This document shows, piece by piece, positions 2,553 to 64,000 of a DNA stretch of 64,000 bases (the stretch's first letter is position 1; every line of letters begins with the position of its first letter). The stretch is from Candidatus Omnitrophota bacterium (lineage in GTDB: Bacteria; Omnitrophota; Omnitrophia; Omnitrophales; Aquincolibacteriaceae). The stretch spans positions 16,099 to 80,098 of the forward strand of contig JAZDFE010000007.1 of NCBI GenBank assembly GCA_043808175.1, written 5' to 3'. Under the pieces are notes generated by a model. That model was not told the DNA's origin. It worked only from the letters and a program-made list of their open reading frames with translations, and did no database searches. A program made the translations under genes and the position numbers.

Positions 2553-4439
2553 ATGGAGATCAGACGGCTTAGGATCAACGCGCAGATCGGGATCGGGCAG
2601 CTCGAGGAGCTTCTTACCGGGCTCCAATACCAGAAGCGGGAATATGTTGCCCTGCCCGGGGAATTCGCCGTGCGCGGCGGGGTGGTGGACATCTATCCCG
2701 TGACCTACCGGCTTCCGGTCCGCGTTCAGTTCCGGGGCGACACACCCGTCCAGATCCGTGATTTCTCGCTCGCCACCGGCGAAAGCACGGCGACCTTTGA
2801 AGAGGTGTTCCTCATCCAGGTCTCCGAGATGTTCCGGAAAAAACTCCGGCGTATGGAGGAGCGGCTTGAGACCTTCGAACCCGTGGCCGGCACCAAAGAC
2901 CTCGAGCGCGGAGACCTCGTGGTGCACCTCAAGTACGGCATCGGCCGTTTTCTCGGTACCAAGACCATTCAAATGCAGGGGGTCCGCACCCGTTGCATGG
3001 CGATCGAATACGCCGAGCGTGAGATCCTTTACCTTTCCGTTGAAGAGCCCGTGGAGCGTTACATCGGCGGCTCCGGCGCAGGGCCGAAACTTACCAAGCT
3101 CAATACCCAGGAATGGGAGAGGATCAAGCACCGGACGCGAACGGCGCTCCACAAGGTCGCCAAAGACCTTCTTGAGATCCAGGCCAAGCGCAGTCTCTTG
3201 CAAGGGCTGGCTTTCCCGAAGGACACGCCGTGGCAAAAAGAGTTCGAAAAAGAATTCCCTTTTGAGGAAACGCCCGGGCAAAAGCGCGCGATCGAAGAAG
3301 TAAAACGGGATATGGAATCCTCGGGGCCAATGGATCGCCTGCTTTGCGGGGACGTGGGCTACGGTAAGACCGAGGTCGCGATGCGCGCGGCATTCAAGGC
3401 GGTGATGGGAGGCAAGCAGGTGGCCTTCCTGGTGCCGACCACGATCCTTGCCGAACAGCATTATGTTTTACTGAAAGAGCGCGCGAAAAATTTTCCGGCC
3501 ACAGTCGAGCTTCTCTCCCGATTCCAATCCCCGAAAGAACAAAAAGTGATCGTCAGGTCCCTCCAGGAAGGCGCGACGGACGTCGTGATCGGCACGCACC
3601 GCCTGCTTTCCAAGGATATCCGGTTCAAGGATCTCGGACTTGTCATTATCGACGAGGAACAGCGCTTCGGCGTACGACACAAGGAAAAGCTGAAACAGAT
3701 GCGCAAGCAAGTGGATGTCCTGACGCTTACGGCCACGCCCATCCCGAGGACACTCCATATGGCGCTCCTCGGCGTGCGCGATATGTCGGTCATCGATACT
3801 CCGCCCAAGAGCCGGATGCCGATCGAGACCTTTGTCATGGAATATCATGAGACGATTATCAAGCAGGCGATCGAACGGGAACTTACGCGCAAGGGGCAGG
3901 TCTATTTTGTGCACAACCGTGTGCAGTCGATCGAACGAGTCTATGAGCGGATGCAAACAATTTTACCCGACGTGCGGTTTGGGGTCATGCACGGGCAGAT
4001 GCCGGTCGATGGGCTTGAAACCGTGATGAAAGCATTCCTGAAGGGCGAGATTGATTGTCTTATCTCAACCTGCATCGTGGAATCCGGAATCGATATCCCG
4101 AACGTGAATACGCTCCTTGTGGACCGGGCCGATTGCTTTGGGCTCGCGGATCTTTATCAACTGCGGGGCCGCGTGGGGCGTTTCAAGGAAAAGCGGCAAG
4201 CCTACGCTTATTTTCTGATCCCGAAGAACTGGGTGATGACCCAGGACGCCCAAAAAAGGCTTTCCGCCATCGAAAAATTCACCCAGCTGGGCTCGGGTTT
4301 TAAGATCGCGATGGAGGATCTCGAGATCCGCGGCGCCGGGAACCTGCTCGGGCATGAGCAAAGCGGTTTCATTCAGGCTGTGGGTTTTGATCTTTACTGC
4401 CGTATGCTCAAAAAAGCCGTGGAAGAGCAGCGTAAATAA
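2553..4439 (+). CDS. mfd: Transcription-repair coupling factor Mfd. At 628 aa it is a short form that appears to lack most of the N-terminal UvrB-homology module and the C-terminal D7 domain.
   Basis: An RNA-polymerase-interaction region and a superfamily-2 helicase core are present (LLCGDVGYGKTEVAMRAA, DEEQRFGV, LTATPIPRT, LYQLRGRVGR). The ORF is bounded by the aminotransferase stop upstream. Confidence 0.8.
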   Translation: MEIRRLRINAQIGIGQLEELLTGLQYQKREYVALPGEFAVRGGVVDIYPVTYRLPVRVQFRGDTPVQIRDFSLATGESTATFEEVFLIQVSEMFRKKLRRMEERLETFEPVAGTKDLERGDLVVHLKYGIGRFLGTKTIQMQGVRTRCMAIEYAEREILYLSVEEPVERYIGGSGAGPKLTKLNTQEWERIKHRTRTALHKVAKDLLEIQAKRSLLQGLAFPKDTPWQKEFEKEFPFEETPGQKRAIEEVKRDMESSGPMDRLLCGDVGYGKTEVAMRAAFKAVMGGKQVAFLVPTTILAEQHYVLLKERAKNFPATVELLSRFQSPKEQKVIVRSLQEGATDVVIGTHRLLSKDIRFKDLGLVIIDEEQRFGVRHKEKLKQMRKQVDVLTLTATPIPRTLHMALLGVRDMSVIDTPPKSRMPIETFVMEYHETIIKQAIERELTRKGQVYFVHNRVQSIERVYERMQTILPDVRFGVMHGQMPVDGLETVMKAFLKGEIDCLISTCIVESGIDIPNVNTLLVDRADCFGLADLYQLRGRVGRFKEKRQAYAYFLIPKNWVMTQDAQKRLSAIEKFTQLGSGFKIAMEDLEIRGAGNLLGHEQSGFIQAVGFDLYCRMLKKAVEEQRK

Positions 4440-4531
4440 GTCGTACCACGGGACACGATACCACGAGCCACGTGGTACGTGGACCGTGGTGCGTGGAGCG
4501 TATGATTCTTATCTGCGTTGACCGTTGCGCG

Positions 4532-4559
4532 TTGCGCGTTGCGCAATAAGGGTTATAAT
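4532..4559 (+). promoter_or_regulatory. Candidate sigma70 promoter (TTGCGC-N16-TATAAT) immediately upstream of surA. It would give a near-leaderless transcript.
   Basis: TATAAT lies at about 4554-4559 and TTGCGC at about 4532-4537. The -35 overlaps a triple tandem heptamer (cgttgcg x3). Confidence 0.35.
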
Positions 4560-4568
4560 GTGGCCCCT

Positions 4569-5537
4569 ATGATGAAAATCGTTCTATTCTCTCTAATAAT
4601 GACTTTATCCGTGCCATTCGCCCGCGCCGCGGAACAGGAATTGCTGGATCGCGTGGTGGCGGTGGTCAATGACGAGGTCATCACCCAGGCCGAACTGGAT
4701 ACTTTCCTCCGCCCGATCTATGAACAATACAGCAAGGAATACAGCGGCGCGGAATTGGTGAAAGCGATCGACGAGGTTCGCCAAAAGATCCTAGGCCAGA
4801 TGATCGAGGATAAGCTTGTATACCAGGAAGCGGTCCTGATGGGGATCGAGATCAAGGAAGAAGACGAGGAGAAGGAGTTCCAGGAGTTCAAGTCCAAGCT
4901 GGAAAAACCCGGGGACTTGGACGAGATGCTTGAGCGGGAAGGTCTTACGATGAAAGCTCTGCGCGAGCGGCTCAAGAAGCAGGCGATGGTCCGTCAGCTT
5001 CAGGATCGCGAGATCCGTTCCAAGGTGATCGTGTCTCCTGCCGAGATAGAAGCTTTTTTCAAGAATAATCCTGACAAGTTCAAGAGCAAGGAGCGCATCC
5101 GGGTCAAGTCGCTTACGATCAAGAAAAGCGAAGAAGCGCGCGCGAAGGGTTTGACGGACGAAAAAGCAAAGCAACGGATCGGGCTTTTGGCGCAAAAGAT
5201 CCGGCTCGATCGCAATTTTGATCAGATCGTCAAGGATCTTTCCGAAGATAGCCATGCCAAAGAGGAAGGCCTGGGAGAATGGATCGAGCGCGGCGCCATG
5301 ATCGAATCCGTGGATGAAGTGATCTTTAAAACTCCCGTGGGAGCAATCACCGGGGTTGTGGAGACTCCCATCGGGTATCATATTTTTCGTATCGAGGCGA
5401 AAGAGCCTGAGAAGGTTCGGACTTTTGAGGAAGTGAAAGATCAGATTGCGGGATATCTCTTTCAGGAAAAAAGTAACGTGAGGTTCCACGACTGGATGGA
5501 GGAAATCAAGAAGGCGGCCTATATTTCAATCAAATAA
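4569..5537 (+). CDS. surA: Periplasmic chaperone / peptidyl-prolyl cis-trans isomerase of the SurA family. It has a signal peptide, a SurA N-domain and one parvulin domain.
   Basis: The start is refined to MMKIVLFSLIMTLSVPFARA, which is a signal peptide. A parvulin motif is present (GVVETPIGYHIFRIE). surA-pdxA-rsmA synteny is conserved. Confidence 0.75.
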   Translation: MMKIVLFSLIMTLSVPFARAAEQELLDRVVAVVNDEVITQAELDTFLRPIYEQYSKEYSGAELVKAIDEVRQKILGQMIEDKLVYQEAVLMGIEIKEEDEEKEFQEFKSKLEKPGDLDEMLEREGLTMKALRERLKKQAMVRQLQDREIRSKVIVSPAEIEAFFKNNPDKFKSKERIRVKSLTIKKSEEARAKGLTDEKAKQRIGLLAQKIRLDRNFDQIVKDLSEDSHAKEEGLGEWIERGAMIESVDEVIFKTPVGAITGVVETPIGYHIFRIEAKEPEKVRTFEEVKDQIAGYLFQEKSNVRFHDWMEEIKKAAYISIK

Positions 5538-16397: not shown

Positions 16398-17945
16398 ATG
16401 GCGGGAAAACGGAAGATTCACATATTTGACACCACGCTGAGAGACGGCGAGCAATCACCCGGGGCGTCGCTTACTCCGGATGAGAAGCTGACGATCGCGC
16501 GCCAGCTTGAGCGGTTGAATATCGATGTGATCGAAGCCGGGTTTCCGGCATCTTCACTTGGGGAGATGAAGGCCGTCTCCATGATCGCGGAAAATGTGCG
16601 TAAGCCCGTGATCTGCGGTCTTTCGCGCATGATCCCACGGGATATCGATGCCTGCCGACGGGCCCTTGAAAAGGCCGCGAGAAAACGCCTGCATCTTTTT
16701 CTCGCAACCTCCCAGATTCATCGTGAGTTCAAGCTCAAAAAAAACAAAAGAGAGATCTTAGCGATGGTAGAACAGAACATCAAATCTGCGGCTAAGGATT
16801 TTAAGCAGATCGAATTTTCGCCTGAGGATGCGTCACGTACCGAACGGGACTTTTTGGCGGGGACCGTCCGGGCCGCGATCCATGCGGGGGCCACTTCGAT
16901 CAATATTCCGGATACTGTGGGTTACACGGTCCCGCAGGAATTCACGGAGCTGATCCGTTTCTTGATCAAGAAAAACCCCGAATTGGGCAAAAAGGTCGTG
17001 CTTTCGGTTCATTGTCATAACGACCTCGGTCTCGCGACAGCCAATTCCTTGGCCGCCGTCCTGGCGGGTGCGAATCAGGTGGAGTGTACGGTGAATGGGA
17101 TTGGCGAACGTGCGGGGAACGCTTCGCTGGAAGAGATCGCCATGGCGATCGATACGCGCGCGGATTTCATGAATTGTTACACAGATATCAAACTCTCTGA
17201 GATCACCAAAGCTTCGCGGTTGGTATCTAATTTGACGGGAATGGTCGTTCAGCCTAACAAAGCGATCGTCGGGCGCAATGCCTTCTGGCATGCTTCCGGC
17301 ATCCATCAGGACGGGGTGCTCAAGAAGCGCCAGACCTATGAGATCATGGACCCGAAAAAGATCGGGCTTTCCGGCAACCAGCTGATGCTCGGGAAACTCT
17401 CGGGCAAGCACGCCTTTGAGGTGCGTGTGAAAAAGCTCGGGTTCCGCTTGGGGCTCAAGGAACTCGATCAGGCTTTCGTTCAATTCAAGGCTCTCGCGGA
17501 CAAGAAGAAATATATTTTTGACGAAGATCTCGAGGCCATCTTGCAAAATGAAATCGCCAAGATCCCGGAGACCTGGAAGCTGGCATCCATGAAGGTGGTG
17601 TCTGAAACCGGCGCAAAGCCTCATGCTCAGATCAAGCTTTCTTATGAAGGCAAGGCCAAGCAAGCCGTTTCGAACGGAGACGGTCCCGTGGATGCTTGTT
17701 ACAAGGCCATTGAGAAGATCGTCAATTCCAGGGCACAACTTATTCATTACGGTCTGCAATCGGTCACGAGCGGCAAAGATGCTTTGGGCGAAGTGCTGGT
17801 TAAGCTTGAGATCGGTGGCAAGGAAGTGACCGGTCGCGGCACGAGTACTGACATTATTGAAGCCAGCGTACGCGCCTATCTTTTCGCGATTAATAAAGTT
17901 TCGGCGAACTCTCAACGGGCCGCGAGCCAGTCTTCCCCGGTGTGA
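16398..17945 (+). CDS. leuA: 2-isopropylmalate synthase / (R)-citramalate synthase family. The start is refined to MAGKRKIHIFDTTLRDGEQ.
   Basis: The HMGL-like TIM barrel (HCHNDLGLATANSLAAVLAGA) and a C-terminal LeuA dimerisation/regulatory domain are present. Confidence 0.8.
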   Translation: MAGKRKIHIFDTTLRDGEQSPGASLTPDEKLTIARQLERLNIDVIEAGFPASSLGEMKAVSMIAENVRKPVICGLSRMIPRDIDACRRALEKAARKRLHLFLATSQIHREFKLKKNKREILAMVEQNIKSAAKDFKQIEFSPEDASRTERDFLAGTVRAAIHAGATSINIPDTVGYTVPQEFTELIRFLIKKNPELGKKVVLSVHCHNDLGLATANSLAAVLAGANQVECTVNGIGERAGNASLEEIAMAIDTRADFMNCYTDIKLSEITKASRLVSNLTGMVVQPNKAIVGRNAFWHASGIHQDGVLKKRQTYEIMDPKKIGLSGNQLMLGKLSGKHAFEVRVKKLGFRLGLKELDQAFVQFKALADKKKYIFDEDLEAILQNEIAKIPETWKLASMKVVSETGAKPHAQIKLSYEGKAKQAVSNGDGPVDACYKAIEKIVNSRAQLIHYGLQSVTSGKDALGEVLVKLEIGGKEVTGRGTSTDIIEASVRAYLFAINKVSANSQRAASQSSPV

Positions 17946-18952
17946 AAAAAGACAAGCCCAATTCCCCATCAAAGAATTTAAAGGTCAATTGGACTAGTCC
18001 TGGCAACCTTCAGTCAGGAAAAAATAGATGCCAGGACAAGACCTTCAAGCTTTACGGAATCTTCGGGTACCCCCTTTCGCACACTCTTTCTCCGACCATG
18101 CACGAAGCCGCGTTCCGCAGGCTCGGGATCGACGCCCACTATATCGTTCTGGAATTGATTCCCGCCGATTTCAAAAAGCTCATGCGCCAATCCTCCGAAC
18201 TTTCTCTTTCAGGTTTTAATGTCACAGTGCCCTACAAAGAAACAGTGATGAAAGATCTCGCCGGCATCCGGCCGGAAGCGCGTGTCATCGGCGCGGTCAA
18301 TACGGTTTTCAAACAAGGGAAACGGTGGATAGGTACCAATACGGACATGGAAGGTTTTCTTACGGCGATCATGAAGGAAGGCGGGTTTCGCCCGTCCGGG
18401 AAAAAGGCCGTGATCCTCGGGGCCGGTGGCGCGGCACGCGCGGTGGTTTATGGTCTTTCGAGAGAGGGAATCCGGGAGATCCTGATCGCGGATTGCTTTC
18501 CCCAAAAAGCCCAGAAGATCGCGAGTGACATGCGGAAACTTTTCAAACGGGTGAATTACTATGCTGCAATGGCCGGAACACCGGAGGTCAAGGAGGCTCT
18601 TCAAAAAGCCGATGTTATTATCAACGCGACTCCGATCGGGCTGAAGTCTCAAGACCCAAAGGTGGTCCCGGAAAGATGGATCCCTCGAGCGGGAAGGGCT
18701 CGAGGAACTCCGCGGGGGCGAGCCTCGAAAAGATCAAGCTGCGGCTCGATGCTTTTTATGGATCTTATTTATAATCCGGCCGTGACACCTTTTTTAAAGA
18801 TGGCAAAAAAGAAAGGGCATCGGACCCTAAACGGGCTCGGGATGCTGCTTCATCAAGGCGCTCGGGCTTTGGAGCTTTGGACGGGACGAAAGGCGCCGGT
18901 GGGCGTGATGCGCCGGGCGCTTCTTAACGCTCTAAGCGAACGGGGGAAATGA
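17942..18952 (+). CDS. aroE: Shikimate dehydrogenase carrying two insertions. One is an N-terminal family-1 repeat element of about 30 aa. The other is an internal Arg-rich insert of about 20 aa.
   Basis: AroE signature is present (LYGIFGYPLSHTLSPTMHEAAF ... ILGAGGAARAVVYGL ... NATPIGL ... DLIYNP). The GTG start overlaps the leuA stop (GTGA). Confidence 0.8.
   Translation: MKKDKPNSPSKNLKVNWTSPGNLQSGKNRCQDKTFKLYGIFGYPLSHTLSPTMHEAAFRRLGIDAHYIVLELIPADFKKLMRQSSELSLSGFNVTVPYKETVMKDLAGIRPEARVIGAVNTVFKQGKRWIGTNTDMEGFLTAIMKEGGFRPSGKKAVILGAGGAARAVVYGLSREGIREILIADCFPQKAQKIASDMRKLFKRVNYYAAMAGTPEVKEALQKADVIINATPIGLKSQDPKVVPERWIPRAGRARGTPRGRASKRSSCGSMLFMDLIYNPAVTPFLKMAKKKGHRTLNGLGMLLHQGARALELWTGRKAPVGVMRRALLNALSERGK
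17954..18040 (+). repeat. Family-1 intragenic repeat, copy A. It is about 87-90 bp, lies in-frame in the aroE 5' coding region and translates as PNSPSKNLKVNWTSPGNLQSGKNRCQDKTF.
   Basis: By eye it is roughly 75% identical to copies at about 39917-40005 and 40244-40331. An internal inverted repeat is present: gtcctggca (17996-18004) pairs with tgccaggac (18028-18036). Confidence 0.8.
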
Positions 18953-36174: not shown

Positions 36175-36307
36175 TGATAGCCCAAACTTTTCATTTATTT
36201 TCCAAAACGGTAGTTTGGACAGCCCCAATTTCAACTCCGTTGAAATTGATAGATATTGGGACAGTCCAAGTCACCATCCATGAAGAACAAAGGAAGACTT
36301 GGGCGCT
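36175..36307 (+). repeat. Family-2 intergenic repeat, copy R3. It is hairpin-rich and ends at the start codon of the next heptosyltransferase.
   Basis: It shares the gtccaagtc...agacttgggcg module with the copy at 63150-63192. Hairpins: caatttcaa/ttgaaattg and ccaagtc/gacttgg. Confidence 0.6.
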
Positions 36308-37330: not shown

Positions 37331-38289
37331 ATATTCTTGTCGTGACGTTGAGCAATTTCGGGGACGTGATCCTGACGACCCCCGTGATCATGGCACTTGC
37401 CCGGAAATATCCCGAGGCTCGGATCACGGTGGTGGTGGGGCCGCGCGCGAGAAGTGTTCTTCAGAGAAGCCCCGATATCCATAAGATCGTGATCTACGAC
37501 AAGAAGGCTTCTTTCCTGGAAAAATTAAAATTCATCGCAGAACTTCGCAAAGTAAAATATCACTGCGTCGTGGACCTGCGTAATACCGCCATTCCGTTCC
37601 TGGTCTCCTGCGGCAAGAAAACCCCTCTTTTCAGGAAATTCACCAAGGTCAACATGCGGGATCGTCACCTCGAAATGCTCGCGACAGTGGAACCCGGCAT
37701 TCCCCATCCCTCTCCTTTTCATTTTTTTAACCAAGAGGATGAGATCTTTGCGATGCGCACTCTGGATGCTGCGGGGATCACGGAAAAGAAAGGATGGATC
37801 CTGGTGGCGGCAGGGGCGGCCAGCGAGAGAAAACGGTGGCCGGTTCAATCCTTTAAGGAAGTGATCCAAGCGCTTCACGAGAGGACCGGCAAGAAGATCC
37901 TCCTGGTGGGAACCCTTAATGAAAGACCGGTGGCCGACAGCATTCTGAAAAAACTTCCAGGAATCGTCGGGATCCTTTGCGGTGACCTTGTTTTGCCCGA
38001 GACGGCAGCGCTTATCGCGAACGCTTCGCTTGTGATCGCTAACGACAGCGCGATCATGCATCTTGGGTTCGAATTGGGCACGCCGACTGTCGGGATCTTC
38101 GGACCGACAGACCATGAGAAATACGGACACGAAGGTCCGAAATTCCGCATTGCGCGGGAAAAGGCCCAAGGTTGTGCCTGCAGGTCCGATCAATTGCCTC
38201 GCGCCGAGCGGAGTTGTTTTCACGGACTTAAACCCGAAAAAGTGATCGGACTTTCTTTGGAGCTTCTGAATGCCACTCAATCTTCCTGA
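37327..38289 (+). CDS. GT9 heptosyltransferase. The true ATG start, MNILVVTL, overlaps the upstream stop (ATGA). The listed 404-aa ORF from 37075 is an out-of-register extension.
   Basis: GT9 motifs are present (MNILVVTLSNFGDVILTTPVIMALARKYPEA and NDSAIMHLGFELGTPTVGIFGPTDHEKYG). Confidence 0.8.
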   Translation: MNILVVTLSNFGDVILTTPVIMALARKYPEARITVVVGPRARSVLQRSPDIHKIVIYDKKASFLEKLKFIAELRKVKYHCVVDLRNTAIPFLVSCGKKTPLFRKFTKVNMRDRHLEMLATVEPGIPHPSPFHFFNQEDEIFAMRTLDAAGITEKKGWILVAAGAASERKRWPVQSFKEVIQALHERTGKKILLVGTLNERPVADSILKKLPGIVGILCGDLVLPETAALIANASLVIANDSAIMHLGFELGTPTVGIFGPTDHEKYGHEGPKFRIAREKAQGCACRSDQLPRAERSCFHGLKPEKVIGLSLELLNATQSS

Positions 38290-40666
38290 CACTCCGCGCA
38301 TTCTCATCACGCGCACCGATCGCATCGGGGACCTCGTCCTCACCACGCCGCTCTTCAAAGCCTTGCGGGAAAAATTCCCGAAAGCCTGGATCGCGGCGGT
38401 TGTGTTCCTCGAACACCGCGAAATCGTACAGGAAAATCCTTTTCTGGATGAGGTGATCCTCTATGATAAAAAAGGGAGCGAGCGCGGTCTTTGGGGGCAG
38501 TTCTGTTTTAGCCAAAAACTCCGGAACAAAAAATTTAATGTGGTGATCCATGCCCATGGTACGAACAGGATGCATCTTGCCGCGTGGTTCGCGGGGATCC
38601 CCCTGCGCATAGGTTACGCGCGCCGCGCGCCGTGGACGCTCACGCATGTTCATCCTTATAATAAAAAAGAAGGAAAAAAACAGGAGGCCGAATATCTCTT
38701 TGAGCTTCTGGATCTTTTGGGCGTGACCCCTCCCAAAGAGATCGAGACTTTTTTCCCCATCACGGACCGATCCGTCCGCTCTTTCGAGAGTTTGCGTGTG
38801 TTTCGCAAAATCCCGTACGATCGGCCCTGGATCGTTCTCAATCCCTCGGCGAGCGATGTGACCAAAATGTGGCCGGCGGAGCGCTTTGCCGAACTTGTGA
38901 CCCGGATCCAAAAGAATCATCCAAGCGTTTTTATTGCGATAGGGACCGTCCAGGACCGTTCTCTCATCGAAAGATTGATCAAAAACACTCCGGTTCCGGT
39001 CTTTGATCTGAGCGGAAGACTTTCCCTTGGAATGCTAGGCGCGCTTTTGAAGCGATCGGCCCTGCTTGTCTCCAACGATTCCGGGCCCGTGCATATCGCG
39101 ACGACGGTTGGCACGCCGGTGGTTTCCATTTTTGGGAGGTATGAGGCAGGTCTTGGGCCCAACCGCTGGCAACCGCTTGGGGAGCGTTCGCGCGTGGTCG
39201 CGAAGGATGTTTCGCGCATTCCGGAAGCCGTGCGGAAGTTCACCTACATCGATGAGATCACGGTGGATGAAGTTTTTCGGACCGCAAATGATCTATTGGG
39301 TAGTAGCGGCAAAAAGTTTTTGCGTGAAGAGGAGCCTTCCACGAAAGGGATATCGGGTGGAGGAGGGAGGATGGCAGAAACGGTTCCTCGCCATCCGCCA
39401 TCCGTCATCCGCCATCCGCAAAAGATCCGCAGGGTTTTGATCGTGCACCCCTACGGAATCGGGGATCTTCTCTTTGTGACGCCAGTTATGCGGGCGCTTC
39501 GTCTCGTCCCGACGGTCGAGACCGTCGATCTTCTTTTGGGATCCCGCACGCGGGAGGTCGTGGAGAATAATCCTCACATCAATGATATTTTCGTCGTGGA
39601 TAAGGACCGCGCTCATCGTCAGACTTGGCTCGAAAATCTTCGCGACCACTGGAAACTGGGCCGGAAACTCCGGGCCAAGCATTACGACCTGATCCTGGAT
39701 TATTCGCTGCAGCGCGAACATGCTTTTTGGGGTCGGTTCTTTCTCGGTATTCCGAAATGCGCGGGGTTTGCGTATAAAAAGCGCGCGACATTCCACAATA
39801 TCCGTTTTCCACTTCCAGAGGGGTTCTGGAAACGGCATGCCGTGGATTTTTATTGTGATCTTGCGGAGGCAGCCAGGATTCCCGTGGAAGACCGTTTTCT
39901 GGAATATTTTTTTCCCAAGCCCCATTCTCCATCAGAAGGATCAAAGGTTAATGGGACTAGCCCTGGCGACCTTTTAGGAAAAGAAAATAGATGCCAGGGC
40001 AAGCACGAATCTTTGATCGAAGCAGAGATTGCCGGAAAGTTAAAACTTCTGCCGGAACGTTTTCTCGCGGTCGCTCCCGGCGGCGGGGATTCGTGGGGGA
40101 AGGAAGCTTCTTTCAAGCGCTGGCCTGTGAAGTATTTCGCGGCATTGATCGAAAAACTTCAAATGGAACGAAACATCCGCGGCGTCGCCATCCTGGGCAG
40201 TCGTTCCGAGCGGGCGCTGTGTGAAGAATTGCAGGCGATGATCGAGCCCCATTCTCCATCAAAAGCATCAAAGGTTAATGGGACTAGTCCCGGCAACCTT
40301 TTAAGAAACGAAAATAGAAGTCAGGACAAGCCACCCTCAGTCGTGCTGGCGGGGGAGACAAGCCTCACGCAAACGGCCATGGTCCTCAAAAAGTCCGCGC
40401 TTTTTGTCGGCAACGACGGAGGCCTGGTTCATTTGGCGCATGCGCTTCATGTGCCGCTCCTGGCTTTTTACGGGCCCGTGCCGCCCGAAGTGTACGGACC
40501 CTACCCGCCATCGCCTGATGCGATCGCCATCTTCAAACGAGGATTAAAATGCCGTCCGTGTTACTACAAATTCCGCTATCATAAAAAGTGTCCAACGATC
40601 GCGTGTCTTACAGATTTAAAGCCGGAAGAGGCGCTTGAACAGACAAAGGGTCAGGTGCCTTTTTGA
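38270..40666 (+). CDS. 798-aa ORF with two complete GT9 heptosyltransferase domains in tandem. The second begins at an in-frame AGGAGG ribosome-binding site plus ATG at 39371. The second domain carries two family-1 repeat insertions.
   Basis: Domain 1 reads ILITRTDRIGDLVLTTPLFKALREKFPKA ... NDSGPVHIATTVGTPVVSIFGR. Domain 2 reads RVLIVHPYGIGDLLFVTPVMRAL ... GNDGGLVHLAHALHVPLLAFYGP. There is no stop between the two domains. Confidence 0.7.
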   Translation: MPLNLPDTPRILITRTDRIGDLVLTTPLFKALREKFPKAWIAAVVFLEHREIVQENPFLDEVILYDKKGSERGLWGQFCFSQKLRNKKFNVVIHAHGTNRMHLAAWFAGIPLRIGYARRAPWTLTHVHPYNKKEGKKQEAEYLFELLDLLGVTPPKEIETFFPITDRSVRSFESLRVFRKIPYDRPWIVLNPSASDVTKMWPAERFAELVTRIQKNHPSVFIAIGTVQDRSLIERLIKNTPVPVFDLSGRLSLGMLGALLKRSALLVSNDSGPVHIATTVGTPVVSIFGRYEAGLGPNRWQPLGERSRVVAKDVSRIPEAVRKFTYIDEITVDEVFRTANDLLGSSGKKFLREEEPSTKGISGGGGRMAETVPRHPPSVIRHPQKIRRVLIVHPYGIGDLLFVTPVMRALRLVPTVETVDLLLGSRTREVVENNPHINDIFVVDKDRAHRQTWLENLRDHWKLGRKLRAKHYDLILDYSLQREHAFWGRFFLGIPKCAGFAYKKRATFHNIRFPLPEGFWKRHAVDFYCDLAEAARIPVEDRFLEYFFPKPHSPSEGSKVNGTSPGDLLGKENRCQGKHESLIEAEIAGKLKLLPERFLAVAPGGGDSWGKEASFKRWPVKYFAALIEKLQMERNIRGVAILGSRSERALCEELQAMIEPHSPSKASKVNGTSPGNLLRNENRSQDKPPSVVLAGETSLTQTAMVLKKSALFVGNDGGLVHLAHALHVPLLAFYGPVPPEVYGPYPPSPDAIAIFKRGLKCRPCYYKFRYHKKCPTIACLTDLKPEEALEQTKGQVPF
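39917..40005 (+). repeat. Family-1 intragenic repeat, copy B. It is in-frame in GT9 domain 2 and translates as PHSPSEGSKVNGTSPGDLLGKENRCQGKHE.
   Basis: It is homologous to copies A and C. The internal inverted repeat is gccctggcg (39960-39968) pairing with tgccagggc (39992-40000). Confidence 0.8.
40244..40331 (+). repeat. Family-1 intragenic repeat, copy C. It is in-frame in GT9 domain 2 and translates as PHSPSKASKVNGTSPGNLLRNENRSQDKPP. Its hairpin arm is degenerate.
   Basis: By eye it is about 80% identical to copy B over some 88 bp (cccattctccatca...aaggttaatgggactag...aaaatagaag). Confidence 0.8.
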
Positions 40667-51652: not shown

Positions 51653-52210
51653 ATGACAGTGGATATTCGTTTTTCGGGGCAGAATCTTAAGATCACCGCG
51701 GGGATGAAGGAGCATTTGGAGGAAAGACTTCCCAAATTCGAAAAGTACGCTCCGCGAATCATAGAAGCCCATGTATTCCTTAAAAAAGAGAAATACGTCT
51801 TTAAGGCGGAGATCACGCTTGCGGCCAAGGACTTTCATGCTTTCGGGATGGGTGAAGCTAAAGATAATATCTTTGCGGCGATCGACGAGGCCTATGAGCG
51901 CGTTGTGAAACAGTTGAAAAAATTCCGCTCGAAATCAAAGGGGCATCATAAAAAAAATGCCAAAGCTTCAGCGAAGGTCGCCCGGGCGCTCGGAATGATC
52001 GAAACGGAAAGCATTTTGCCCGAAGATCATCCGAAGATCGTTCGTTCCTCAGTGTTTGCACTCAAGCCGATGTCTGCCGAAGAGGCCAGTCTTCAGCTTG
52101 AGATCTCTCCTGAGACCTTCCTTGTTTTTTTAAACCAAAATACCAACAGTGTGAATGTGATCCATAAGCGCAAGGACGGGAATCACGGGCTGATCGAGCC
52201 GGGATTCTAG
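51653..52210 (+). CDS. hpf: Ribosome hibernation promoting factor (long form, with a C-terminal dimerisation domain).
   Basis: The N-terminal sequence matches the RaiA/HPF fold (MTVDIRFSGQNLKITAGMKEHLEERLPKFEKYAPRIIEAHVFLKKEK). Confidence 0.85.
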   Translation: MTVDIRFSGQNLKITAGMKEHLEERLPKFEKYAPRIIEAHVFLKKEKYVFKAEITLAAKDFHAFGMGEAKDNIFAAIDEAYERVVKQLKKFRSKSKGHHKKNAKASAKVARALGMIETESILPEDHPKIVRSSVFALKPMSAEEASLQLEISPETFLVFLNQNTNSVNVIHKRKDGNHGLIEPGF

Positions 52211-52350
52211 TCCCAATTTTTATCAATTGAAGCGAAGCGGTCCCAATCCCAATCAATCGAAGCGTAGCTGAGATTGGGGCCGTCTCGACTACCATAAATG
52301 AAAAGAAAATAAAAGTCGCGACGGAAATTGGGGCAATCCTGATTACCATT
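52209..52350 (+). repeat. Family-2 intergenic repeat, copy R1, between hpf and ptsN.
   Basis: It shares two modules with copy R2 at 63085-63230: gtcccaa-N4-tatcaatt...agcgg and ca(t)aa(a)tgaaaagaaaa-aaaag...cggaaattgggg. Confidence 0.6.
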
Positions 52351-52412
52351 CATCAAAAAAAATGAAAGTCAGGATAGTTCCACAACCTTTTTCAATCAGG
52401 AGGAATACATCC

Positions 52413-54164: not shown

Positions 54165-54255
54165 TGGGGCCATGATGTTCAAGTCTTTATTTTTTTCATG
54201 AATGGCGACTTGGACCGCCATGATTTTCGATTCGTTTTTTTAATTAAGGAAAATC

Positions 54256-54552
54256 ATGACAAAACGACCTAAAAAAATCAAGCAAGAGACGATCGAACGG
54301 ATTTTTATGATTGGCAACAAACTGGGCCTTCACGCCCGGCCCGCCGCTGTTTTTGTCCAGACGGCAAATCGGTTTGAGGCGTCGGTCGAGGTTCAAAAAG
54401 ATGATATCAAGATCGATGGTAAATCGATCATGGGCATCATGACGCTTGCGGCTGAAATGGGTTCGTCGATCGCGGTGCGCGTGACCGGCAAGGACGCTGC
54501 GGAGGCCATGGAAGCGTTGGCCAAACTCATAGGATCTAATTTCGGGGAATAA
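54256..54552 (+). CDS. ptsH: Phosphocarrier protein HPr/NPr.
   Basis: The active-site His region is present (GLHARPAAVFV). Confidence 0.8.
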   Translation: MTKRPKKIKQETIERIFMIGNKLGLHARPAAVFVQTANRFEASVEVQKDDIKIDGKSIMGIMTLAAEMGSSIAVRVTGKDAAEAMEALAKLIGSNFGE

Positions 54553-62035: not shown

Positions 62036-62059
62036 GTTTTCTACCCAAGGAGCATCTCC

Positions 62060-63079
62060 ATGACGAGCACAAAGATCATTTGCACGCTGGGTCCCGCTTC
62101 AAGCCGGGCCAATGTCCTGCGGCAGATGATGCGTGCGGGAATGGATGTGGTACGGCTTAATTTTTCCCACGGAACGCTTGCGGAGCACCGGGAGAAGATC
62201 TGTCTCATCAGAGCGCTGAACAAAAAATATCGCCGCCGCATCCAAATCCTGGGAGATCTCGAAGGTTATCGAATGAGGATTGGTGAGCTGAAGGGGCAGA
62301 AGCCGGTCGAGGTCAAGAAGCGGCAGATTCTCTGGCTCACGACGGAAAACACGGTCGGAGAAAATTCCCATATTCCCTTTGATTGGGTGGGTTCTTTGCG
62401 ACCTATCAAACCAGGCCAGCTTATCTACATTGACGACGGTCTTATTGCCCTCAAAGTCGAGGCTCGTGATCAAAAAAATCTCAAGACTCGCGTGATCGTT
62501 GGAGGTGCGATCAAAGAACGCAAAGGAATCAATATGCCTGGCGTGCAATTGGATGTCACGGGGCTGACCCGGAAGGACAGGGAGGACATTCATTTTTGCA
62601 TCGAGCATAAAGTGGATTATATCGCACAATCTTTCGTACGGAATAAAAGGGATATTTTAGATCTCCGGTCTCATCTGAAAAGCCACTCCCACGAATGCGA
62701 CGTGATCGCCAAGATTGAGAACCGGGAAGGGATCCGAAATATCGATGAAATCATAAGCGTTTGCGAAGGGATCATGGTCGCACGCGGGGATATGGGGATC
62801 TCTGTTCCGATTTATGAAGTGCCCTCGATTCAGAAGAAGATCATTAAGAAATGCAATAAGGCGAAGAAATTCGTGATCACGGCGACCCAGATGCTTGAGA
62901 GCATGACGGAACATCCCATCCCGACCCGCGCCGAAGTCAGTGATGTGGCGAACGCAATTCTCGATGGAACGGACTACGTGATGCTTTCCGCCGAATCTGC
63001 CGCTGGCCTTTATCCCGTTCAATGCGTTGAAATGATGAGCCAGATCATTAAATTTACCGAAAAAAATCTTAGACAATGA
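62060..63079 (+). CDS. pyk: Pyruvate kinase, short form (339 aa; TIM-barrel plus lid domains only). The C-terminal allosteric domain of about 120 aa is absent.
   Basis: PK signatures are present ([53 protein letters not shown]). The ORF ends at TGA 63077-63079, exactly at the edge of a repeat insertion. Confidence 0.8.
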
Positions 63080-63084
63080 CTGTC
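63058..63084 (+). repeat. Left copy of a roughly 26-bp direct repeat (gaaaaaaatcttagacaATGActgtc). It contains the pyk stop codon. The right copy at 63221-63247 contains the ABC-F start codon.
   Basis: A 16-bp exact core, aatcttagacaatgac, is present in both copies. Flanks differ at 2 positions. Confidence 0.75.
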
Positions 63085-63230
63085 CCAACACCTATCAATT
63101 TCTACGTAGCGGCACTTGATTCTGTTTCAAAATGAAGGTAATCAGTGCCGCCCAAGTCGCCATTGATTAAAAGAAAACAAAGACTTGGGCGGAAATTGGG
63201 CGGTTATCATCAACCCTAATGGAAAAGAAT
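63085..63230 (+). repeat. Family-2 intergenic repeat, copy R2. It has an 11-bp perfect stem (ccgcccaagtc/gacttgggcgg) and a second hairpin (gcggcacttgatt/aatcagtgccgc).
   Basis: It is homologous to R1 (52209-52350) and R3 (36175-36307); see the shared modules listed there. Confidence 0.65.
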
Positions 63231-63238
63231 CTTAGACA

Positions 63239-64000
63239 ATGACCGTCTTATTACAAGTCAATGAATTGCACAAGGCCTATGGCGCTGTAACGATCCTCGA
63301 TAACGCCACCGCGTCATTCGGAGATGATCAAAAGATCGGTGTGATCGGCCGCAACGGGGCCGGGAAATCCACGCTTTGCCGTATCATCACCGGACACGAA
63401 TCGGCTGAAAGCGGTACCGTCACGCGCAACGCTGCGTTGCGCCTCTCCTATCTCGAACAGCATGATACGTTCAAGCCCGGGGAGCGGGTGGTGGACTTCC
63501 TGATGCGCACCACGCGGAGCGAGCATTGGGAGTGCGGGCAGATCGCCGCGCGGTTCCAGCTTGAAAATGAGATCCTTGAAGAATCCGTACGGAATCTTCC
63601 GGGAGGTTTTCAGACGCGCGTGAAGCTTGCGGCAATGCTTTTGGGCGACCCCAATTTCCTGATTCTTGACGAACCTAGCAACTATTTAGATTTGAGCACG
63701 TTGATCCTTTTAGAAAATTTTCTGCTCGATTTCAAAGGCGGGTATCTGGTCGTCTCCCACGATCGGGAATTCTTGAAGCGGACCTGTGATCACACGCTTG
63801 AGGTCGAGAACGGAGGGCTTGCCCTTTATCCCGGGGACATTGAAGAGTATTTCGAATTCAAGGAGGAGCAACTCGCCCAGAAACAGGCCTATAACCGCGG
63901 TCTCGACAAGAAACGGGAACAACTCCAGATCTTCATTGACCGGTTCAAGGCGAAGGCTTCCACGGCGACGCGTGCACAGTCGAAAATGAAACAACTCGCA
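63239..64000 (+). CDS. ABC-F family ATP-binding protein (N-terminal part; continues beyond the window).
   Basis: The start reads MTVLLQVNELHKAYGAVTIL. Walker A (GRNGAGKST), the signature (LPGGFQTRVKLA) and Walker B (LILDEPSNYLD) are present, then the inter-domain linker begins. Confidence 0.8.
   Translation, partial: MTVLLQVNELHKAYGAVTILDNATASFGDDQKIGVIGRNGAGKSTLCRIITGHESAESGTVTRNAALRLSYLEQHDTFKPGERVVDFLMRTTRSEHWECGQIAARFQLENEILEESVRNLPGGFQTRVKLAAMLLGDPNFLILDEPSNYLDLSTLILLENFLLDFKGGYLVVSHDREFLKRTCDHTLEVENGGLALYPGDIEEYFEFKEEQLAQKQAYNRGLDKKREQLQIFIDRFKAKASTATRAQSKMKQLA

Follow-up and report, generated by a model that had tools for sequence, protein, structure and literature searches.

How did the same 26 bp come to stand twice at the junction of two genes, once at the end of the gene for pyruvate kinase (PK; pyk) and once at the start of the gene for an ABC-F protein, in the 64-kb stretch of Candidatus Omnitrophota DNA studied here (the window, at its full length)? 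A first-pass annotation had noticed this direct repeat of about 26 bp and read it as an unusually long target-site duplication, left when a mobile element inserted into a pyk/ABC-F overlap of the form ATGA and thereby rebuilt a stop and a start codon. The repeat itself is real, its coordinates having been placed to within 1 base, and we argue for a different origin. With a probability of roughly 0.7, the repeats are successive copies of one module, which we call M2, in a clade-restricted family of modular hairpin repeats in the Omnitrophota, and the junction is a short array of that family.

The first copy of the direct repeat (GAAAAAAATCTTAGACAATGACTGTC, 63059–63084) forms the end of pyk and the second (GAAAAGAATCTTAGACAATGACCGTC, 63222–63247) carries the ABC-F ATG; the two are identical at 24 of 26 positions, with a start-to-start distance of 163 bp. 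The exact 16-bp stretch that they had been said to share (AATCTTAGACAATGAC) is confined to them, occurring exactly twice in the window even when two mismatches are allowed, as against a mean of 0.03 occurrences in shuffled windows, where none of 100 shuffles reached two. Because the longest exact repeat is only 16 nt, a misassembly at this point is unlikely. The stretch between the copies (63085–63221, 137 bp) does contain multiple hairpins, as had been described: a perfect 11-bp inverted repeat (63148–63158 and 63182–63192) and a second hairpin read by eye (63109–63121 and 63140–63151), and 161 nt of RNA at the junction folded with z = −3.0 relative to shuffles. Overlooked earlier was an inverted copy of the end of copy 2 at 63198–63211, and thus copy 2 is the 3′ arm of a third hairpin, with the ABC-F start codon inside it. 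From the end of pyk to the start of ABC-F there are 159 nt. Known RNA families offered no identification: Rfam 15 gave no match at the gathering score in the whole window and none at E ≤ 1 in 62950–63350, a tRNA and tmRNA search of the window found none, and a promoter scan of 62800–63500 returned one promoter-like site, no more than in shuffles.

The hairpins are parts of a repeat unit of about 83–87 bp in which a core hairpin alternates with an M2 hairpin. The core hairpin consists of GTCCCAAT-N4-ATCAAT, a variable apical stem and ATTGGGGC, while M2 has a stem of 9–12 bp, with compensatory variation between copies, and an A-rich loop, conserved and about 23 nt long (AACCnTTnnnGGAAAAGAAnnTTA). 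BLAST of the junction, together with inspection of intergenic regions, placed further family sequences in the window at 36180–36305, 52210–52375 and 54177–54260. A census of the core with a loose pattern gave 42 matches in 767 kb (the window plus related loci), about 36 of them clear copies by reading, and all of these clear copies lay in the window or in close relatives.

The stem of M2 is variable and covaries. In an alignment of 31 copies, pairing reached 95.7% and two-sided changes occurred at all nine pairs. A covariance model built from this alignment (R1) found 12 M2 matches in the window at E < 0.01 and 55 in 837 kb (window and loci), every one of them in the window or in the loci of close relatives; in these 55 matches, 94.5% of the stem cells were paired, 155 cells carried two-sided changes and all nine pairs varied. 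The informative feature is the contrast between a loop that stays constant and stems that change from copy to copy. Fuzzy pattern searches with the loop alone were too noisy, and the covariance model was used instead. Both 26-bp copies at the junction correspond to the 3′ half of M2, that is, the end of the loop plus the 3′ arm, and they share one stem subtype (GACAATGAC).

In these terms the junction would read, from left to right, as an M2 3′ half fused to pyk, a core with two M2 hairpins nested in its tip, and a complete M2 with the ABC-F ATG in its 3′ arm. Unless stated otherwise, the features that follow lie on the forward strand. Copy 1 (63059–63084) begins with PK-native sequence, GAAAAAAAT, which shares microhomology with the M2 loop, and continues as an M2-type loop end and 3′ arm, CTTAGACAATGAC(TGTC), as judged from the PK 3′ ends of relatives and from alignment; of its 26 nt, the 9 on the left are thus microhomology native to PK, which leaves only about 17 that truly come from the module. 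The left half of the core, GTCCCAAC-ACCT-ATCAAT-TTC-TACGTAG (63082–63109), was located by the motif census and is homologous to cores in two relatives, L046 and L014. Next, assigned to neither strand, comes the nested insert (63110–63189), some 80 nt long (±3), placed in the apical loop of the core by alignments and by the L046 sequence and composed of two M2 hairpins; it is not present in L046, L014, L010 or L052. The first of the two is in reverse orientation (63112–63148, minus strand; arms 63109–63121 and 63140–63151), with an R1 score of 22.2 bits (E = 0.0035) and support from folding. The second is in forward orientation (63150–63190), with arms CCGCCCAAGTC and GACTTGGGCGG at 63148–63158 and 63182–63192 and a score of 47.4 bits. 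The right half of the core, CGGAAATTGGGCGG (63190–63203), pairs with ATCAATTTC at 63094–63102 according to both fold and alignment. Last stands the M2 with the ABC-F start (63198–63248; R1 38.1 bits at 63203–63243), made up of a 5′ arm (63198–63211), an A-rich loop (63212–63234) and a 3′ arm (63235–63248). Sequence comparison identifies copy 2 (63222–63247) as the 3′ half of this loop together with the 3′ arm. The ABC-F open reading frame (ORF) itself, MTVLLQVNEL..., has its ATG at 63239–63241 and covers 63239–64000, continuing past the end of the window.

The same arrangement is old enough to be shared with relatives, for which two sets of loci were compared: 39 from species representatives, taken at a neighbouring gene, and 80 from metagenomes, taken at ABC-F, with up to 10 kb either side of the matched gene (individual loci carry L numbers). 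Upstream of ABC-F, a start-like copy (...ATGACNGTC), a core and an M2 with the true ATG follow one another in at least eight genomes, L007, L008, L009, L010, L011, L014, L046 and L052. In L007, L009, L010, L011 and L046, this repeat-core-repeat layout is present, pyk is absent and a Fe-alcohol dehydrogenase gene lies upstream; in L008, L014 and L052, the PSV-type tail usual for pyk is present, and the spacer holds copy 1. Because the layout also occurs in genomes without pyk, the duplication needs no overlap of pyk with ABC-F, from which the first-pass annotation had derived it. In L046, whose ABC-F protein is 97% identical, copy 1 spans the entire M2 loop (AACCTTAATGAAAAGAAAATTTTAGACCATGACTGTC), giving a repeat of about 36 bp, and the core (ATCCATTTCTACGCAGTGGAAATTGGGG) is the window core minus the nested 80 nt. 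R1 matches the copy-1 loop by itself in L046 and L052, and in L010 a degenerate 5′ arm precedes copy 1. Between pyk and ABC-F in L052, a metagenome contig (703–914), the unit is repeated in tandem with a period of 87 bp (29 codons), 2.4 copies and 92% matches. An intergenic core/M2 array in L020 (6021–6312), at no gene start, has an equally long flanking repeat (score 22 over 28 bp), and in L013, where the site has no core, M2 nevertheless covers the ABC-F start. Since the layout, the cores and the copies recur across relatives, the 26-bp repeat would mark where one unit of an old array, common to these genomes, meets the next, rather than being a target-site duplication. Many relatives have no element at all upstream of ABC-F.

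The hairpin over the ABC-F start is predicted in the window and in five of the six element-bearing relatives that were folded (L007, L008, L010, L011 and L014), with a best fold z among the relatives of −3.9. Reading of the arms revealed orthologous compensatory changes in this M2, from CATTG/CAATG to CATGG/CCATG in L008 and from C-G to T-A in L014. Copy 1 of the window matches copy 2 of other species at 20 of 23 positions and its own copy 2 at 21 of 23. Concerted evolution of the copies is not claimed, as their mean identity is 18.2/23 within genomes against 16.9/23 between genomes, and L010 alone stands out.

If a 26-bp duplication were the signature of insertion in this family, other copies should be flanked likewise, and a flank test on 27 core copies showed otherwise. 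Long repeats were found only at ABC-F loci or within arrays, so that long flanking repeats are rejected as a family-wide trait. Where single units stand at the starts of other genes, they have flanks of 6–10 bp of the form ATGAC(N), namely at ahcY in L008 and L010, at a 77-aa ORF in L002 and at pyk in L001, and the flanking repeat of the ahcY and 77-aa ORF units measures 9–10 bp. Two units within a heptosyltransferase gene, for which the empty sites are clean, have flanks of about 6–8 bp (CAAGCC). Across the family the flanking repeats thus have no fixed length, the shortest being about 6 bp and the longest about 36 bp, and where clean empty sites are available they are only 6–10 bp long. The reading as a long target-site duplication is therefore not supported: the duplicated sequence corresponds to part of the M2 module, and only ATGACN is specific to the gene. 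One part of the earlier insertion reading comes close to the data, namely its variant in which the end of the element was copied together with the junction.

The pyk side of the junction has a history of its own. The PK gene (62060–63079) encodes a protein of 339 aa without the C-terminal domain, as indicated by the ORF, its homologues and NCBIfam TIGR01064 (453 bits, model positions 2–338 of 476); the protein is 100% identical to P0001, from a metagenome-assembled genome of a Candidatus Omnitrophota. This length had been called unusually short, and it is normal for the clade: nearly all full-length proteins among the 120 best homologues have 337–349 aa, which rules out a shortening of PK by truncation. 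The suspicion that the junction had been remodelled fared better. PK ends in ...FTEKNLRQ, with the stop TGA at 63077–63079, and among the 120 homologues the LRQ tail is limited to the window (EKNLRQ) and L001 (EKHLRQ). Other tails are EKNPSV, EKHRxF and similar, after which come a spacer and then a leader resembling M2; in L047, for example, ACCGAAAAAAATCCTTCGGTTTAA is followed by a spacer and then by GAAAAGAAACTTTAGACAATGACC. From this comparison of tails, the final three codons and the stop of the window pyk (CTT AGA CAA TGA, 63068–63079) come from the repeat module. The fusion of the PK codons GAAAAAAAT to the similar stretch GAAAAGAAA of the M2 loop would have happened in the common ancestor of the two pyk alleles (window and L001), through loss of about 36 nt. 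Its product would be ACCGAAAAAAATCTTAGACAATGA, the tail of both alleles, and in this way the deletion may have exchanged the PK tail NPSV-stop and its spacer for NLRQ-stop, creating the ATGA.

L001 (GCA_041643255.1), whose PK is 90% identical to that of the window, is the relative with a single-copy ATGA junction whose existence had been predicted. Its pyk (1765–2784) and ABC-F (2781–4589) genes overlap by ATGA on a single copy (GAAAAACATCTTAGGCAATGACTGTC / caccGAAAAACATCTTAGGCAATGACTGTCttatta). At 1683–1769, a core+M2 unit lies upstream of pyk, with the pyk ATG in the M2 3′ arm (...GAAAAGAATCTTAGACAATGACGAAAACG; R1 29.7 bits), so that pyk is bracketed by two M2 3′ halves, GAAAAGAATCTTAGACAATGAC and GAAAAACATCTTAGGCAATGAC, matching at 19 of 22 positions. 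All other pyk-bearing genomes have a plain 24-nt spacer with a Shine-Dalgarno sequence before pyk. Because this unit sits upstream of its pyk, L001 is not a naive empty site. Two more distant genomes with pyk, L002 and L005, have a PSV-type stop and then a spacer of 26–39 nt. More generally, pyk is variably present between the Fe-alcohol dehydrogenase and ABC-F genes (window 62036–63238 compared with L007, L009–L013, L015, L016 and L046), which suggests repeated loss or exchange of pyk at this repeat-rich spot. Trees of the flanking genes place the window nearest to L012, which has neither pyk nor core at a DNA divergence of about 10%, and then to L010, L011 and L001. Within about 15% DNA divergence, pyk and the unit are found in all four combinations of presence and absence. 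On these trees the most parsimonious history has the unit as ancestral, with losses in L001 and L012.

Taken as an array, the locus would have had its ABC-F start in an M2 arm since long ago, and units would have been gained and lost through recombination or slippage between the repeated modules. Most probably the element is DNA of a selfish or neutral kind, tolerated because one frame of its units is free of stop codons.

Several points weigh against reading the junction as an array of this kind. The single-copy ATGA junction of L001 also fits an insertion model, and either direction of change, loss in L001 or gain in the window, is compatible with the data. The array leaves unaccounted for the route by which the first core reached its position between two M2 copies. 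The units with short flanks indicate that some process may duplicate a few flanking bases, or use microhomology, if not by a 26-bp stagger. The M2 at the ABC-F start is degenerate in the window itself, with 9 of 11 pairs by reading and a predicted energy of −12.6 kcal/mol (z = −0.97). Pairing of about 95% among M2 copies is partly built in, as the methods by which they were collected reward pairing. Finally, all sequences are metagenome assemblies.

The alternative that stands up best keeps the modules and changes the direction of events. Here an L001-like ancestor, with pyk fused to a single M2 3′ half, took up a core+M2 unit at that half, by homologous or microhomology-mediated recombination, and the tract of homology became duplicated; either an allele of a relative or a unit that had been excised could have been the donor. 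Consistent with such a gain, pyk and the unit form a mosaic in the close relatives, as the four combinations show, the flank lengths of about 6 to about 36 bp are those expected if they are set by the available homology, and the window core is most similar to that of L046. Yet parsimony favours the unit as ancestral in the clade of the window, L010, L011, L008 and L009, no excised or circular unit was seen, and on present data the gain is indistinguishable from loss in L001. We regard it as unlikely.

A second alternative takes the layout to be a regulatory leader, in which copy 1, the inverted copy at 63198–63211 and copy 2 form alternative pairings and, with the help of an upstream ORF, govern how ABC-F is translated, in the manner of the leader-peptide attenuators of resistance ABC-F genes. 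The orthologous ABC-F protein, full-length in L001 at 602 aa, scores barely above the cut-off set for NCBIfam NF000355 ('ribosomal protection-like ABC-F'; 380.9 bits against 380), and the start codon lies in a predicted stem both in the window and in five of six folded relatives. As the first-pass annotation had pointed out, a mini-ORF of seven codons, MEKNLRQ-stop (63219–63242), precedes ABC-F, with its ATG in the M2 loop and its TGA overlapping the ABC-F ATG in an ATGA; by reading, it also occurs in L007, L008 and L014 and does not occur in L009–L011. A longer ORF starts from the ATG of copy 1. In six of ten element loci it either overlaps the ABC-F ATG or stays free of stops until no more than 6 nt before it, and in those six loci its frame has the fewest stops of the three, alone or tied. 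In L052, the ORF of the array runs open through both full units (56 codons) to a stop 6 nt before the ABC-F ATG, an internal TAG having become CAG. These patterns are suggestive of coding constraint on the upstream ORF, a signal that is not independent of nucleotide conservation. In the window, the nested insert interrupts this ORF, which a comparison of ORFs across loci shows to be shortened to 19 aa and a stop (63076–63135), so that of the proposed upstream ORF the mini-ORF stands and the longer frame of the relatives is broken; it is likewise broken in L009, L010 and L056. The ABC-F AUG appears to have no good Shine-Dalgarno sequence and to lie in a weak predicted stem beside an unpaired A-rich loop; the window hairpin is weak, and a scan of 62800–63500 found no terminator-like site. 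Moreover, the modules are found in both orientations at numerous unrelated sites, gene ends and the inside of coding sequence included, many relatives lack the element, and where the peptide is conserved, the underlying nucleotides are also kept in non-coding copies. A dedicated leader is therefore improbable, and a regulatory role of the repeats in general is possible but unsupported.

A broader role for the modules can be drawn from where else they lie. The arms of M2 hold the start codons of five different genes, all of them ATGAC: ABC-F, ahcY, HPr, pyk and a small ORF. Such arms were seen in the window at 54217–54260 (HPr start at 54256), at ahcY in L008 (15478–15561) and L010 (16423–16505), and at the 77-aa ORF in L002 (7955–8041); ahcY and the 77-aa ORF have, as at ABC-F, a second copy of the start (9–10 bp) upstream of the core. 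Conceivably, M2 hairpins with arms of the form ..GAC(A/C)ATGAC could serve as preferred points of recombination or insertion at ATGAC starts, moving 85-nt units or whole genes and rebuilding stop and start each time, and/or the conserved loop could be a putative binding site that places ABC-F, ahcY, HPr, pyk and the small ORF under one translational control. We offer this as speculation, with the odds clearly against it.

The original proposal, that a mobile element of about 137 bp inserted at the ATGA overlap through a 26-bp staggered cut and so rebuilt stop and start, now appears very improbable. It draws on the single-copy ATGA junction of L001, on the near identity of the two copies (24/26) and on the fact that both differences are silent in the relevant reading frame of each copy. 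Against these stand the membership of the duplicated stretch in a family module, the same duplication in relatives without pyk, and the short flanks (6–10 bp) of copies with clean empty sites. The 137 bp are, moreover, composite, consisting of an old core and the later nested insert of about 80 nt; the insert would have needed both a 5′ arm complementary to its target and exactly the half of the loop that was absent there; and in L001 the unit lies on the opposite side of pyk. That M2 hairpins serve in site-specific recombination in the manner of integron attC sites, with pyk as a cassette moved by a dedicated recombinase, is scarcely credible: the bracketing of the L001 pyk by two M2 3′ halves (19/22), the presence or absence of pyk between the same neighbours in close relatives and hairpins of variable sequence but conserved structure would fit, whereas the conserved motif is ATTGGGR with no GTTRRRY core site, no integrase was found among neighbouring genes with listed Pfam families, the modules are dispersed and do not form one cassette array, and other pyk genomes have the plain 24-nt spacer with a Shine-Dalgarno sequence before pyk.

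Beyond the junction, modules of the array family were seen at further sites in the window. In the gene for heptosyltransferase II (GT9; ORF 38270–40666), core+M2 units lie in frame at 39920–40005 and 40245–40335 and encode HSPSEGSKVNGTSPGDLLGKENRCQGKH and HSPSKASKVNGTSPGNLLRNENRSQDK, of 28–29 aa each. Orthologues of 359–365 aa have neither insert, some have only the second, and P0124 and P0125 have an insert at a third site. A core-like+M2 unit at 17950–18040 (R1 40.6 bits at 17997–18037) lies at the 5′ end of the ORF 17942–18952, being either an in-frame N-terminal insert or a sign that the true start is further downstream. Upstream of a ptsN-like gene, 52210–52400 reads core-core-M2-M2 and ends in a degenerate 5′ half of a core (TTCCACAACCTTTTTCAAT) beside the ribosome-binding site. 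At the same ptsN-like site L017 has only a degenerate half-module of the core, and thus partial modules flank arrays here too.

How does this family compare with known ones? Repetitive extragenic palindromic (REP) sequences and the bacterial interspersed mosaic elements (BIMEs) that they form, which occur in Enterobacteria and Pseudomonas, have been defined previously (PMC3733652; PMC2817692), a REP being an imperfect palindrome of 20–40 bp with a conserved stem and, at one of its ends, an unpaired tag that reads GTAG or CGTC (PMC3733652). Like these, the present repeats are short hairpins found mostly between co-directional genes, with some copies within genes; a few types of module build mosaics and tandem arrays (L020 6021–6312, L052 703–914, window 52210–52375 and 63059–63248); and transcription as RNA hairpins is likely. 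In contrast, M2 measures about 41–50 nt and combines a conserved loop of about 23 nt with a variable stem, whereas REPs have a conserved stem and a small loop. There is also no constant GTAG or CGTC tag, the conserved flank being the GTC of GTCCCAAT and CGTC or GTAG appearing in some copies only. Array units are mostly in one orientation, and the arms of the hairpins carry gene start codons, both unlike REPs and BIMEs.

In behaviour, the family resembles the Rickettsia palindromic elements (RPEs), which are in-frame palindromes in unrelated protein genes, to which they add a stretch of peptide, and variably present among species (PMC10969869). Its in-frame inserts of 28–29 aa at three sites in heptosyltransferase II are likewise present or absent among orthologues, and the final three codons and the stop of pyk are built from a module. 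Its unit of about 85 nt differs from the roughly 100–150 bp of RPEs, it belongs to another phylum, so that kinship in sequence would not be expected, and most of its copies are intergenic. [quoted passage not shown] The core begins with GTCCCAAT and ends in ATTGGGRC, and the unit extends beyond it through M2. Unlike in MITEs, the flanking duplication has no fixed length (about 6 to about 36 bp), and no parent insertion sequence is known. The motifs ATTGGGR and YCCCAAT, without GTT, also separate it from integron attC sites, which have GTTRRRY and RYYYAAC.

Translational coupling through ATGA overlaps, and leader ORFs of ABC-F resistance genes, are well established. The ATGA overlap of L001, and the short ORF that in relatives ends at the ABC-F ATG or within 6 nt of it, are reminiscent of both. 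In the window, on the other hand, 159 nt come between pyk and ABC-F and break the coupling, the longer ORF is cut short, and the layout is a by-product of a dispersed repeat rather than a leader particular to ABC-F.

The family is thus of the same general kind as REPs and BIMEs, RPEs and MITEs, and what is novel is the family itself. It may not have been described before; a full-text literature search found nothing relevant on repeats or palindromes in Omnitrophota. For the locus that raised the question, this means that the apparent 26-bp target-site duplication has an ordinary cause and that no new transposition chemistry is required. For the organisms, it means that a dispersed repeat family builds the end codons and the stop of pyk, carries the starts of at least five genes and adds peptides of 28–29 aa within an enzyme, and that it marks the spot where a glycolytic gene varies between close relatives. 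Where such modules go unrecognized, starts, ends and 'insertions' in Omnitrophota genomes will be put in the wrong place by gene callers and in comparative work.

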